64,000 bases of DNA from an uncultured Clostridia bacterium (GTDB lineage Bacteria; Bacillota; Clostridia; Christensenellales; UBA1242), in the NCBI GenBank assembly GCA_944380265.1, contig CALWGY010000005.1, positions 2,878-66,877 of the forward strand. The letters are read 5' to 3'. Below are positions 57,762 to 64,000 of this stretch, piece by piece (within the stretch, counting starts at the first letter, position 1; each line of letters opens with the position of its first letter). The notes under the pieces were generated by a model. It was not told the origin of the DNA. It did not search any database and was given only the letters and a program-made list of their open reading frames with translations. Both the position numbers and the translations under genes were made by a program.

Positions 57762-58262
57762 ATGGAAAAAGATATTTACAAAAGAAAAAACAAGGCACTA
57801 AAAATCACGTTAATAGTTATTAAAAACATTTGTTTAGCACTGCTTATAACATTGGTTTTTGCTTTTGCAACTGGTTTTAAATTTTTAAACATTTTAACTG
57901 GTTCCATGACACCAACAATGCCAAAAGATACAGTTATCATTATTAAAAAAATCCCAATAAGTCAAGTTGAAATTGGTGATGTTATAACATTCAAAATGGG
58001 AGATAGTAACGTTACACACCGAGTGGTGGATATTAAGGGTAATGGTAATCATATTGCATTAGTTACTCGAGGCGATGCTGCAGATGGAAATGACCAAAAT
58101 GTTACTGTGGAAAACCCAGTAAATCCTGCACAAAATAAATTTGTTGGAGTGGTTATTTTTCACATACCATATTTGGGTGTGCTATTAAACCTTATTAAAG
58201 ACAACATAATAATAATAACTGTGTGCATTGTGCTTGCTTTGTTTATAATAACTTATAGTTAA
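57762..58262 (+). CDS. sipW: SipW-type (S26B, archaeal/ER-like) signal peptidase I
   Basis: N-terminal TM, ILTGSMTPTMPKDTVIIIKK (catalytic Ser), ITFKMGDSNVTHRVVD (His), TRGDAADGND, and a C-terminal TM. Confidence 0.8.
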   Translation: MEKDIYKRKNKALKITLIVIKNICLALLITLVFAFATGFKFLNILTGSMTPTMPKDTVIIIKKIPISQVEIGDVITFKMGDSNVTHRVVDIKGNGNHIALVTRGDAADGNDQNVTVENPVNPAQNKFVGVVIFHIPYLGVLLNLIKDNIIIITVCIVLALFIITYS

Positions 58263-58403
58263 ACATAATTTTGCAAATAATATTAGAGGGTTTATGGTTT
58301 AATTACTATATACTCTCTTTTTTTAATTTTGCTTTAAATATAATTGCTTTACAAAAAAACAAAAAAAACGTAAAATTACAATAAGGAAAAGTGTGCTAAA
58401 AAA

Positions 58404-59117
58404 ATGAAAAAGAAAAACAATAATGTATTAAAAAATAATAGTTTTTGTATCATTATGACTGCAATTGCGCTGTGTTTGGTTGTTGCAATTGGAGTTACTT
58501 TTGCATGGCTTACTGACATTGTTGAAAAAGAAGGAAATGCAACAATTGGTGAAGTTGGCATTGAAATTTATGATGGAGAAACACGCTTAAATGGTGTTAA
58601 GTTGGAAGATGGAAGTTATGCAATTGGAAAACCGCTAGAAATTGTGTTTGGTGAACTTAACACACCCATAAACTTAAATTTACAAATTAAAAACACAGGA
58701 ACAATTCCAGGCATTGTTAAGTGCTTGGTAACCATTTCAACAAACGAAGGTCCGCACGACCACCATACCGACCTAGATGGTGCGCTTTTCATGCTAAAAA
58801 CAAATCAGGCATCAATTGTGCAAAATGGTTGGGTTAATTTGTATGACGACCCAATAATTTCCGATCAATATTTCTTTAATTCATTTTTAAATGAACAGTT
58901 GCCAGCAGGTGCAACAAAAAATGTTATTGCAAGTTTAACACCAATTGCATCTGGTCTAGAAAACACATCGGTGTTTATTAGGCTTAGGGCAATGATTGTG
59001 GCTTATTCTGGAAATGCGTATCAGGTTGATACAGCCGAAAATCCAGTTGCCGACATTGATAAACCATTTGGTGTTTTAACACCAGAATTTTTGGAACAAT
59101 GGACTGCTTGGAAATAA
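58404..59117 (+). CDS. TasA/camelysin-like secreted protein with a SipW-cognate signal peptide (paralogue 1)
   Basis: The signal ends in GVTFAWLTD (TIGR04088-type signature). It shares the paralogue motifs NGWVNLY, RAMIVAYSG and EQWTAW. Confidence 0.65.
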   Translation: MKKKNNNVLKNNSFCIIMTAIALCLVVAIGVTFAWLTDIVEKEGNATIGEVGIEIYDGETRLNGVKLEDGSYAIGKPLEIVFGELNTPINLNLQIKNTGTIPGIVKCLVTISTNEGPHDHHTDLDGALFMLKTNQASIVQNGWVNLYDDPIISDQYFFNSFLNEQLPAGATKNVIASLTPIASGLENTSVFIRLRAMIVAYSGNAYQVDTAENPVADIDKPFGVLTPEFLEQWTAWK

Positions 59118-59145
59118 AATAAAAAAATAACAATAGGAGGCAAAA

Positions 59146-59844
59146 ATGGAAGATAGTATTTATGACTATAATCATTTAGGAAACAGATTTAATAAAATTG
59201 TTTCTTTGCTTATTATTGTTGTTTTGTGTTTTTTAATTTTTTATTTCATAACTTCTGCTTGGTTTGGAGAAGATGAAGTTGCAGGCAAAGTTTTTGTTGT
59301 TGGAGATATTGACCTAGAAGTTGAAACCAACTTGGAATTTCCTGATGATTTGTTAGAACCAAACAAACTTTACAACAACATGCCAACAACCATAACTTGT
59401 GCAGAAGGCACAGATGATGCTTACATTAAAGTTAAGGTTGAAACCGATTATCAAGTTTTAAATCATCATGTAATTTTTCCAGTGCTGTATGTAAATCCGG
59501 AGCATGAAGCAAACGGAAAACAAACTTGGATTTATTGTGAACAAGATGACTGCTATTATTATGTTGGATACATTTCACCTGAAATTACTGCACAGTTCAA
59601 CACAGGGTTTGTTGTTACAAACGACATTAATAACATTGACAAAAGCAAGCCGGTTAACATAAAAATTACGGTTTATGCAATTCAACGCTATTACGAAGCA
59701 TACAAGTATGAACAAGAATGGACATTTGCACCAGAAGAGTGGAAAGCAGAAATTGCTTATTATGATGTTACAGATTGCCCAAATTGTGGTTACAAGGTGG
59801 AATATAATCAGGAATATTGTCCAAACTGCAATGCCAAGTTGTAA
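59146..59844 (+). CDS. TasA/camelysin-like protein (paralogue 2) with a degenerate SipW-type signal and a C-terminal double zinc ribbon
   Basis: AGGAGG RBS; ITSAWFGED after the h-region; DCYYYVGYI, ITVYAIQRYY and FAPEEWKAE motifs; C-terminus CPNCGYKVEYNQEYCPNCNAKL. Confidence 0.6.
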   Translation: MEDSIYDYNHLGNRFNKIVSLLIIVVLCFLIFYFITSAWFGEDEVAGKVFVVGDIDLEVETNLEFPDDLLEPNKLYNNMPTTITCAEGTDDAYIKVKVETDYQVLNHHVIFPVLYVNPEHEANGKQTWIYCEQDDCYYYVGYISPEITAQFNTGFVVTNDINNIDKSKPVNIKITVYAIQRYYEAYKYEQEWTFAPEEWKAEIAYYDVTDCPNCGYKVEYNQEYCPNCNAKL

Positions 59845-61732: not shown

Positions 61733-62052
61733 AAGAATGCAAAAACAATTTGACCCAAATAAGCGTTTTTTGTAATTATCGTTTAAAAAATTTTTAACAT
61801 TATTTGTTGTTAATTAAATAAAATTAGGTGGTTTATGGTTATTTATGTGTGTGAACAACATTTAAAAATTTTAAATTATATTTGCTAAATTTTTTACTAA
61901 TTAACTGCCAACTTCAAATTTACTAAATGATAATATTATATATTAAATAAAATCTATTTAGGAAATTTCATTTTACTAAAAGGAAAAAATTTAATATACT
62001 ATTAAGTAAGTAAGATGTGTAACTATGCCCAAAAAATTTTGGCGGGAGAAAA

Positions 62053-62808
62053 ATGAAATTATCTAAGGAAATTAATAAATACACAAGCTTAATAATAGTT
62101 TTAAGTGTGCTTCTGGCCATTTCCTTGGTTGCAGGTGCAACTTTTGCATGGTTTGCTAGCACCGATAGAGCTGTTACAACCATAAATTTGGGCGACCCAG
62201 TTGTTGTTAACATTGTTGAAAAAGATGATGGAACAATTCTTGCTGATGGTGCAGAATTACCATTTGTTATAAATAACGAACATTTGCTTCCAGGCATGAG
62301 AATTAACACTTATGCTGCTGCAAAATTTCAGCCAAGCATGACTCCGGCACTTTTAAGGGTTAAACTTAATGTTTCAGTTGAGGGTGGGTCGGCAAGCCAA
62401 GCGGAAATAACCGAACTAGTAAAAGCATTAAATCAGCAAATAAGTGATAGGGCTGGATTTGATGGATCATGGTGCTACGACACTGAAACTGGGTGGTGGT
62501 ATTACACAAATGGAAACAATGATTATCAAAATGTAAAAAACTCATTAGTAGAAAACATTAATTGCGAAACCGGACCAATTATTGAGTTTTTAAATCCATA
62601 CACAAAAAATCAACATTTACAAATGCCAACCAATATTGATAATAAGTTTTCAACTGCAAAAGTAACATTCTGGTTTGCGGTTCAGGCAGTTCAAGCATTA
62701 ATTCCTGCAGATGATAATGATCCATCAGGAACTTATCTTATAACAACCATTAGAAATGTTGAACGTGTGTTTAACGAAGCGTTTGCTGGAAGCGATAGTA
62801 ACATTTAA
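62053..62808 (+). CDS. TasA/camelysin-like secreted protein with a SipW-cognate signal peptide (paralogue 5)
   Basis: GGGAG RBS; GATFAWFASTD; TGWWYYTNG; FAVQAVQALIP. Confidence 0.65.
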   Translation: MKLSKEINKYTSLIIVLSVLLAISLVAGATFAWFASTDRAVTTINLGDPVVVNIVEKDDGTILADGAELPFVINNEHLLPGMRINTYAAAKFQPSMTPALLRVKLNVSVEGGSASQAEITELVKALNQQISDRAGFDGSWCYDTETGWWYYTNGNNDYQNVKNSLVENINCETGPIIEFLNPYTKNQHLQMPTNIDNKFSTAKVTFWFAVQAVQALIPADDNDPSGTYLITTIRNVERVFNEAFAGSDSNI

Positions 62809-62822
62809 AAGGAAAACAAACT

Positions 62823-64000
62823 ATGGCAGAAGATAAAAACGAAGAAAAAAAGGAAAAGTTGGGTGCCGAGCAATCGACACAAGTTTCTTCTGCTCAAAAA
62901 AATGAAAATGATGAAAATAAAAACAATTTAAAAGGTTCAAATGAAAAGGCAGAACCTGTTAAAGATAAACAAGAAAAAAAAGATGACAAAGTTGAAGTTG
63001 AGTTTGCAGAAACCGATGAAGACTTAACAAAAAACAATAAATCTTCAAAAAAAATACCTAAGCAAAAAATTGACAAGAAAAAAATTGAGCGCATTAAACG
63101 TGAACTTTTTGCTGATGATGAAGAAACATTAGAAAAAATTAATCAGGCAGCACAAGAAAGTCAAATTGAAGAAAATGAAAATTTGCCAAAAGATGAATAC
63201 CGAACAAAAGATGGAAAACTGATTTCTCGTTCAGAAAGAATTGCAAAAAAGAACGAACAATTATTAGAAGAAGTTTACAGATATAACAGGCAAAAAACAA
63301 AAGACATTTCTGTTAGAAAACAAGAAACATTAAACGTTGTTTTAATTGTAATTTTGTTTTTGTTGTTAATTGCAGTTTTGGCACTGGGCATTTACTTATA
63401 TTTGCAAAAAATAACGTCCTATGATGAAGATTATATTCGTGTTAGTGTTAGCATGACCAACAAAGATATATTTTATGAAACCGAGGTTACGGGAGATTTA
63501 ATTCCAAAAAGTGTTAGTCCAGGCGACAAATTTAACCTTAACATAATTGCCAGAAACAGCAACAACATTTTGGGTGATAATGATGGCGAAGATTGGACAG
63601 ATATTTATGTTAGGTTTAAAATAACACTTATAATTAATGGTGTTAGTTACGATGACTTTATTTATGTTGAGCCAAACCCAGAAGTGTGGGAGCGATATAA
63701 CAAAGAAATTGAAGATGGATACTTAAACAGTGAAACTGACCCAACCCCTGTTGTTAAGGAAGATGATGGTTATTATTATTGCAGATTAATTTTGGAACCA
63801 AATCAACAAGTAACAGTTATTGACTGGTTAAGGTTTAGTGAAGTTTACATAACCGAATTGGTGGGCGGAAGTGATGCTGTTTTGCAAGTTGACATTGAAG
63901 CATTGGAAGCAATTCCAAACATTCTAAAAAACCGTGAAATTTGGGTTAATGCTCCACAACACTGGGTTTTATACATGACCGACCCAGAAACGCACCCAGG
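62823..64000 (+). CDS. Membrane-anchored TasA-like paralogue 6 with a Lys/Glu-rich cytoplasmic N-region of about 170 aa (3' end beyond the window; absent from the ORF track)
   Basis: My own translation from the ATG at 62823 (AAGGAA RBS) has no stop codon before the window end. It reads MAEDKNEEKKEKL..., then the TM VVLIVILFLLLIAVLALGIYLYL followed by QKITSY, then DGYYYCRLI, LQVDIEALEAIP and NAPQHWVLY. Confidence 0.6.
   Translation, partial: MAEDKNEEKKEKLGAEQSTQVSSAQKNENDENKNNLKGSNEKAEPVKDKQEKKDDKVEVEFAETDEDLTKNNKSSKKIPKQKIDKKKIERIKRELFADDEETLEKINQAAQESQIEENENLPKDEYRTKDGKLISRSERIAKKNEQLLEEVYRYNRQKTKDISVRKQETLNVVLIVILFLLLIAVLALGIYLYLQKITSYDEDYIRVSVSMTNKDIFYETEVTGDLIPKSVSPGDKFNLNIIARNSNNILGDNDGEDWTDIYVRFKITLIINGVSYDDFIYVEPNPEVWERYNKEIEDGYLNSETDPTPVVKEDDGYYYCRLILEPNQQVTVIDWLRFSEVYITELVGGSDAVLQVDIEALEAIPNILKNREIWVNAPQHWVLYMTDPETHP

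Follow-up and report, generated by a model that had tools for sequence, protein, structure and literature searches.

In the few model species where TasA-type donor-strand fibres have been described, one or two subunits build them, and the question raised by one end of a 64,000-nucleotide stretch of DNA from an uncultured Clostridia bacterium (contig CALWGY010000005.1; hereafter the window) is whether a signal peptidase gene followed by six diverged genes encodes such a fibre with more parts. A first-pass annotation made from the letters alone had placed an S26B signal peptidase and six same-strand open reading frames (ORFs) between position 57762 and the window end, and these positions were confirmed. 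We call the peptidase SP, the six proteins after it P1 to P6, and the large protein encoded before it BIG, all on the forward strand; TG denotes the gene after P6, beyond the window. On balance, and with reserve, we favour the reading that the locus encodes parts of a SipW-processed surface fibre or matrix of several subunits from the TasA/BsaA (camelysin, PF12389) superfamily, with P4 and P6 as anchors.

The class of the peptidase is established by its match to TIGR02228, the archaeal/endoplasmic-reticulum-type signal peptidase I model (81.9 bits over residues 15-165, above the cut-off of 51.85), and by the GSM (Ser), THR (His) and GDxxxxxD motifs visible in the translation, as had been proposed. 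PF10502 also matched at 27.9 bits, and a transmembrane scan found N- and C-terminal membrane segments. The equivalog model for Bacillus SipW, NF046067, gave 65.8 bits against a cut-off of 190; judged by its sequence, SP is SipW-like in class and context and not an equivalog of Bacillus SipW. P1 lies directly downstream, next to this S26B peptidase, and SP was present in all 11 related loci with its position in view (L007-L009 and L011-L018), in keeping with the suggestion that array and peptidase are conserved together. In L011, from a goat-colon metagenome-assembled genome, the SP orthologue (5898-6376) appeared as two overlapping tblastn segments in different frames, reflecting either a frameshift or an assembly error.

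Paralogy of P1 to P6 was assessed by building an orthologue alignment for each protein from 11-13 related loci, removing signal and transmembrane parts, and comparing the mature domains by hhalign. Probabilities reached 98.4% for P3 with P5, 97.4% for P4 with P6 and 95.7% for P2 with P4, and then 89.9%, 84% and 83% for P2 with P3, P5 and P6, respectively; reversed-profile controls stayed at or below 1.7% in all 15 comparisons. The mature domain of P1 had no direct hhalign match to any of the other five. A broad 78-sequence family profile did match P1 at 84% (E 7e-6; reversed control 4%) and P2, P4 and P6 at 97-98% (97.4% for P6), and the corresponding hidden Markov model (HMM) ranked exactly P1 to P6 as the top six among window ORFs of at least 70 aa, the next having E 0.22. 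Plain BLASTP linked only P3 with P5 (E 3e-16), P2 with P4, and P4 with P6, and connected P1 with P3 via the signal region alone. The mature-domain comparisons and the broad profile thus establish the six as one diverged family, as the first-pass annotation had claimed. That P1 might be unrelated to the others was considered and rejected after the broad-profile match and the finding of its segment N-T-G-T-I-P-G-I-V-K, which by eye resembles N-N-G-S-L-A-I-K-E-V of TasA; by sequence, its membership appears to be the weakest link of the family.

The motifs by which the six had been aligned by eye fared unevenly. The C-proximal strand motif occupies the same profile columns in P2-P6, and so does the central aromatic motif, although the P1 segment that aligns there is SDQYFFNS and not the proposed NGWVNLY. 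The terminal AP(E/Q)xW motif corresponds to a W-x2-AP-x2-W that is invariant in the P2, P4 and P6 families, but P1 has its own conserved WTAW end. The signature of SipW substrates was found where it had been reported, as a signal of the form G-x-T-F-A-W in P1 (GVTFAWLTD), P3 (GGVTFAWYTR) and P5 (GATFAWFASTD), and P2 carries the variant T-S-A-W-F-G-E. P1 has the most divergent mature domain, with a conserved C-terminus (IVAYSGNAYQ...DKPFGVL...WTAW). Orthologue identity to the window proteins was highest for P3, the most conserved subunit (70-91%), and lowest for P4, the fastest-evolving (27-40%), with 65-84% for P2, 63-84% for P5, 51-76% for P6 and 48-79% for P1. P2 has the W-x2-AP-x2-W motif and, at its C-terminus, a zinc ribbon of the form CxxC...CxxC (residues ~208-232, 59767-59844; Zn_Ribbon_1 E 7.5e-5) that is present in about half of its orthologues, the others terminating before it.

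Hydropathy establishes the topology of the two members that had been taken to be membrane-anchored. P4 has a K/N-rich cytoplasmic tail of 45 aa, one transmembrane segment (46-82) and then an extracellular TasA-like domain; gene callers start it at 60999, which gives 238 aa. P6 is cut by the window end, and its complete sequence (449 aa; L002 10771-12120) was supplied by contigs L001 and L002, which equal the window over 1948 common bases. It consists of a charged cytoplasmic N-terminus of 165 aa, a transmembrane segment (166-198), an extracellular TasA-like domain, a second transmembrane segment (403-430) and a basic tail. Both proteins have W-x2-AP-x2-W within the extracellular domain and lack the SipW-type cleavage motif, and in both the would-be donor segment lies 10-20 residues past the transmembrane helix.

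The connection to TasA was traced through relatives. Word-indexed homologue searches returned only close, unannotated relatives (28 for P5 and 26 for P2), so an exhaustive profile search was needed to get beyond the clade; with a P5/P3 profile (A1) it found 746 proteins at E<=1e-3. Among 86 sampled relatives, 14 matched PF12389 (Peptidase_M73) at E<=0.01, 23 matched TIGR04088 (best 5.5e-10) and 5 matched TIGR04090, the cut-offs of these models being 22.5, 19 and 60 bits, respectively. At least five full-length relatives pass the PF12389 gathering score, including P0062, P0088 and P0172 (23.8, 26.5 and 32.1 bits), which the A1 profile matches over their full length at E 8e-38, 4e-26 and 3e-14. 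In P0172, residues 5-126 align with positions 4-117 of the 196 in the model, and in two of these three proteins the match extends to model position 106-117. A Bacillus TasA-family HMM gave collinear two-site hits in dozens of members, at the signal plus first strand and at the C-terminal strand (N-x-Y...F-x-F-E-A-x-Q). These results establish a transitive link to PF12389, and at the level of sequence they support membership of the P1-P6 family in the TasA/camelysin/BsaA superfamily via intermediates, not directly. Many P5/P3 relatives (among P0065-P0200) are 500-980 aa long and have the TasA-like domain fused to LRR_5/BspA, Flg_new or CBM_35 domains, and in some of these fusions it forms the C-terminal end.

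The window proteins themselves scored lower. PF12389 hit P5 only, at 15.0 bits (residues 16-47), with no hit in P1-P4 or P6, and TIGR04088 gave 17.9 bits for P1 and 14.7 for P5, with none reported for P2 and P3. The BsaA model TIGR04090 matched P2 at 17.1 bits (E 0.0034, residues 107-205), far under its cut-off, and the P1 orthologue of L017 at 14.7 bits. Orthologues reached the TIGR04088 cut-off in L007 (P1, 20.4 bits), L012 (P1, 19.0) and L020 (P5-like, 26.3). An NCBIfam scan of the seven proteins at E<=1 gave no match to TapA/YqxM (TIGR04087), and comparisons of each family with a single TasA sequence by hhalign were weak.

Structures were predicted for two of the proteins. The AlphaFold2 model of P5 is a beta-sandwich (pLDDT 74) with residues 33-45 disordered or of low confidence, and that of mature P2 is a beta-sandwich as well (pLDDT 84.4, pTM 0.79) with 13 disordered N-terminal residues. 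In Foldseek, the best-probability match of the P5 model was the TasA fibre 8aur_A (probability 0.63, E 0.06, template-modelling score (TM) 0.34-0.36), which the P2 model also matched (probability 0.85, E 0.046, TMq 0.46); among the P2 hits, donor-strand subunits are frequent (SafA, AbpA 7ueg, CanA, CfaB, HdaB and PsaA). The lists are compatible with a TasA-like fold and not decisive, and the low-confidence N-termini of mature P2 and P5 in these monomer predictions are compatible with a donor strand. The fold check proposed in the first-pass annotation returned beta-sandwiches with the TasA fibre in both lists, but only weakly (E 0.05-0.06). Its claim of TasA/camelysin likeness stands through transitive homology, with orthologues at the TIGR04088 cut-off and relatives above that of PF12389, but not through direct model matches or strong fold similarity.

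How such parts might work is suggested by characterised fibres. In TasA, each subunit donates its N-terminal strand to the next (PMC9674648), and TapA starts this assembly by giving its own N-terminus (PMC10151520). BsaA also uses a donor strand, which is then locked by an isopeptide bond, in polymers that are membrane-associated (PMC11580942), and AbpA is the archaeal counterpart of such subunits (PMC9245690). By analogy, P1, P2, P3 and P5 would be exported by Sec and cut by SP after (T/S)-(F/S)-A, freeing an N-terminal segment with the consensus G-x-x-V-x-I that, as in TasA, BsaA and AbpA, may enter a neighbour's beta-sandwich as the donor strand. We infer from the same analogy that P1 to P6 could exchange donor strands and heteropolymerise. 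Because P4 and P6 have the same predicted fold and an uncleaved transmembrane anchor, they would be likely to form a membrane-proximal base or nucleator, with P6 held by a second anchor at its C-terminus. TG may cross-link or trim the assembly.

Gene-set conservation was established in nine species-level genomes (L007-L015; labelled uncultured Clostridia, and one Christensenella sp.) from human, mouse, goat and sheep gut samples. The order BIG, SP, P1-P6, TG and gerA is shared wherever the contig reaches (L010 begins within P1, L013 breaks off within TG and L008 stops short of gerA), and it is retained in L016, with P5 46% identical, for ten syntenic species-level loci in all. In the more distant L017 (~40% identical) and L018 (~35%), SP-P1-P2-P3 lies on the strand opposite to P4-P5-P6. 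All six families were identifiable in L017, where TG and gerABC follow P4-P5-P6, and all but P6 in L018, whose contig ends just past P5. In L020 (~29%) we detected a block of P4-like, P5-like and P6-like genes, TG and gerABC, with SP-P1-P2-P3 not in view. Because of the inversion in L017 and L018 and the stand-alone P4-P5-P6-TG block in the L020 view, the locus looks like two old modules. In a gene-context look-up of distant relatives, contigs were mostly too short to use. L018 also has an extra P5-like paralogue (2455-3261; P5 HMM E 2e-78) besides its own P5 orthologue.

Several results weigh against a jointly built TasA-type fibre. None of the six window paralogues passes PF12389, TIGR04088 or TIGR04090, and the broad family compared with a 111-sequence Bacillus TasA alignment by hhalign reached 68% when the signal was kept and only 24% for mature domains, where the match lay on the C-terminal strand. 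Profile searches of PDB sequences with A1 (the P5 family) and A2 (the broad family) returned no TasA and no pilin; the TasA chains in the PDB lack the signal peptide. Neither structural model had a Foldseek match at E<=1e-3, and TM values of 0.34-0.46 are compatible with a generic immunoglobulin (Ig)-like sandwich. The zinc ribbon of P2 is odd for a protein predicted to be extracellular, and the array contains at least three transcription units, so that joint production of the six proteins is not required. These units follow from the terminator-like hairpins after BIG, P3, P4 (and P6, the last seen in L002), which divide the array into SP-P1-P2-P3, P4 and P5-P6 (Table 1).

Table 1. Features of the locus, in window positions.
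Feature	Position	Strand	Description
BIG	48077..57637	+	3186-aa ORF, predicted lipoprotein
Candidate promoter of SP-P1-P2-P3 unit	57647..57675	+	sigma-A-like, TTGTTA-17-TATAAT, 10/12 consensus positions
Hairpin with T-run	57698..57727	+	terminator-like, 12 pairs
SP	57762..58262	+	166 aa, SipW-like S26B signal peptidase I
P1	58404..59117	+	237 aa, secreted TasA-like paralogue (predicted)
P2	59146..59844	+	232 aa, paralogue with signal variant and zinc ribbon
P3	59904..60608	+	234 aa, secreted paralogue (predicted)
Hairpin at end of SP-P1-P2-P3 unit	60607..60627	+	intrinsic-terminator-like
P4	60981..61715	+	244 aa, membrane-anchored paralogue
Hairpin after P4	61703..61725	+	terminator-like
Promoter of P5-P6 unit	61972..62000	+	TTTACT-17-TATACT, conserved, with conserved leader
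P5	62053..62808	+	251 aa, secreted paralogue (predicted)
P6	62823..64000	+	cut by window end; doubly membrane-anchored paralogue

Separate units with promoters and terminators of their own would also suit the view that the proteins are TasA-superfamily members which never join one mixed fibre, and instead form separate homopolymers or monomeric surface or matrix proteins under different conditions; P4 and P6 would then each act alone in the membrane, for instance as a sensor, a chaperone or a cell-surface receptor. This explanation, which we think unlikely but serious, gains from the P4-P5-P6-TG module found in L020 with no SP-P1-P2-P3 in view, from the many relatives of 500-800 aa in which LRR/BspA-type adhesin domains are fused on, pointing to display and not polymer formation, and from BsaB of Clostridium perfringens, which forms dimers only and stays out of BsaA polymers (PMC11580942). 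However, all six orthologue groups are kept together from ~35% to 100% identity, which argues for a joint function, and for redundant alternatives we would expect gene loss or differing copy numbers.

The genes beyond P6 raise the possibility of a different setting for the proposed fibre. TG (L002 12280-14367), just past the window end, encodes a 695-aa lipoprotein with a lipoprotein signal and a PF01841 transglutaminase core (residues 409-517; 42 bits against a gathering score of 23), in which the predicted catalytic Cys-His-Asp is in place in the translation (C-x-G-F, H-A-W-N...D). Its N-terminal repeats bear a weak resemblance to the BIG repeats (E 1.8e-5), and it follows P6 in every locus long enough, including the distant L017 and L020. 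The gerA-gerB-gerC operon (L002 14623-18783, with equivalents in L007-L020) always comes next in loci long enough, and because this germinant-receptor operon is present the organism is presumably a spore former. We considered whether this adjacency indicates co-expression of gerABC with the array and set the idea aside, given the separate sigma-G-like promoter of gerA (GCATAAA-N17-CACAAAATA).

Read in this setting, the locus would build a spore-associated structure cross-linked by TG, such as an appendage or a layer of the coat or exosporium. Transglutaminase cross-linking of the coat is established for Tgl of Bacillus subtilis, TasA is named spore coat-associated protein N in sources, and the run from P4-P5-P6-TG into gerA-gerB-gerC is found even where P5 is only ~29-40% identical (L017 and L020). 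Nevertheless, we hold this to be quite improbable: the ger operon has the separate promoter described above, a terminator-like hairpin follows P6 in L002, and the lipoproteins TG and BIG and the membrane-anchored P4 and P6 fit a vegetative surface better. The SP and P5 promoters look sigma-A-like, which also speaks against a spore structure, and with AT-rich DNA, assigning promoter types by consensus carries little weight in either direction. Very unlikely, finally, is a lineage-specific Ig-like or beta-sandwich surface family unrelated to TasA, whose signal resembles the SipW-type motif by chance: it would suit the sub-threshold model scores, the non-significant mature-domain match to Bacillus TasA and the unrelated Ig-like folds among the top Foldseek hits (Grainyhead, macroglobulin and integrin), but not full-length relatives whose PF12389 matches reach into the mature domain, collinear two-site TasA-HMM matches that recur over dozens of members, or a dedicated S26B peptidase that is adjacent and conserved.

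Within the SipW-processed, several-subunit fibre or matrix that we favour, a bolder proposal is that the six paralogues build one heteromeric surface organelle of fixed order or stoichiometry, with a membrane-embedded, TasA-fold base of P4 (single anchor) and P6 (double anchor) and a shaft locked covalently in trans by TG. This would be a chaperone-free and sortase-free Gram-positive counterpart of the ordered multi-subunit chaperone-usher pilus, and it might carry or interact with BIG. We consider it rather improbable.

Known systems share some of these features. As in tapA-sipW-tasA of B. subtilis (PDB 8AUR, 5OF1), a dedicated S26B SipW-type peptidase adjoins its putative substrates, the signals have the form G-x-T-(F/W)-A, L-x-P-G follows the first strand, the C-terminal strand reads F-x-F/V-x-A-x-Q, a beta-sandwich with inserted helices is predicted, and there is an accessory membrane-proximal partner, TapA there and possibly P4/P6 here. 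In contrast to B. subtilis, which has one fibre subunit and the non-homologous TapA, this locus has six paralogues and no TIGR04087 match, its presumed anchors themselves consist of TasA-like domains whose transmembrane helices are not cleaved, a lipoprotein with a transglutaminase core is linked to it, and the similarity of mature domains to TasA is not significant. In Bacillus cereus (sipW-tasA ... calY), one SipW serves two TasA-family paralogues whose GTFA(Y/W)F signal is very like those of P1, P3 and P5, but these proteins pass PF12389 easily, number only two and are not membrane-anchored.

The sipW-bsaA-bsaB-bsaC locus of C. perfringens (PMC7395162, PMC11580942) likewise belongs to a Clostridia host and has SipW followed by more than one TasA-like paralogue, BsaA polymers are reported to be membrane-associated and not wall-linked, and TIGR04090 matches P2 and some relatives weakly. 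The differences are that these scores are far under the cut-off (17 versus 60 bits), that no vWA protein (BsaC) and no sortase lie near the locus here, and that the N-E-K isopeptide triad of BsaA was not identified here, with no BsaA sequence to map it; P5 shows no conservation at position 45, which lies in its candidate donor strand. Any covalent lock here would come from a separate transglutaminase-like enzyme. The bundling pili AbpA/AbpB of Pyrobaculum (PDB 7UEG; PMC9245690) and the cannulae CanA (PMC12518558) are built of jelly-roll or beta-sandwich subunits that carry an N-terminal donor strand, are encoded in multi-gene loci that include membrane proteins, and both appear in the P2 Foldseek list; these matches are weak (E 0.06-0.14), and the archaeal loci are without a dedicated peptidase or a six-paralogue array.

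The first-pass annotation had called the array not described in that form, which is too strong, because Kivimaki et al. (PMC11580942) report multiple BsaA/TasA paralogues in single operons and propose heteropolymers. In the literature we did not find a description of a six-fold array, of TasA-fold membrane anchors, of a linked transglutaminase-like lipoprotein, or of a clade of several hundred proteins invisible to curated models. We see the locus as an uncharacterised form of a fibre system that is already known, and not as a new kind of machine. It occurs in widespread, uncultured gut Clostridia, which retain six diverged subunits as a set even between distantly related lineages. Should its components act jointly, the locus would reveal what tethers a TasA-type fibre to its cell, in which order the subunits are arranged, and whether cross-linking by an enzyme can stand in for the isopeptide lock built into BsaA. 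In addition, at least several hundred TasA-like proteins form a family that goes undetected at the standard Pfam/TIGRFAM cut-offs.

Upstream of SP, BIG has the lipobox MVGC, one N-terminal hydrophobic segment and many beta-rich repeats of ~90-130 aa joined by E/P-rich linkers, including (EP)n and (EG)n around residues 2480-2551. It matches no Pfam family, with only a low-complexity match, and its earlier designation as an adhesin was a guess about what we can describe as a predicted lipoprotein. The C-terminal ~500 aa are 37-59% identical where in view (eight of the nine genome loci, plus a short terminal match in L013). The array was correctly placed downstream of this gene, but the arrangement holds in the closer clade only.

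The promoter candidate of the SP unit, which is partly conserved in an alignment of L002, L007, L012 and L014, sits between the BIG stop codon and the hairpin at 57698..57727, whose ACGTGG/CCACGT stem is kept in L002, L007 and L012 while the loops vary. This hairpin either terminates BIG or acts as an attenuator in the leader of the SP operon, the latter because the promoter candidate lies upstream and SP transcripts would have to read through it. At the P5 promoter, the block TTTTACTAAAA-N8-AAAATTTAATATACTA is nearly invariant in ten loci, including L016. With its leader of ~50 nucleotides (61960-62052), the promoter reads TTTTACTAAAA-N8-AAAATTTAATATACTAT...TAAGTAAGATGTGTAAC in these loci, even though coding regions have diverged to 46% identity, and this conservation exceeds the need of a promoter alone. 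The leaders of the locus have no Rfam match, and neither a T-box nor any other Rfam element was found at gathering score in the window except tRNA-Glu (18126-18200). Just upstream of the locus are pheS and pheT (44389-47809).

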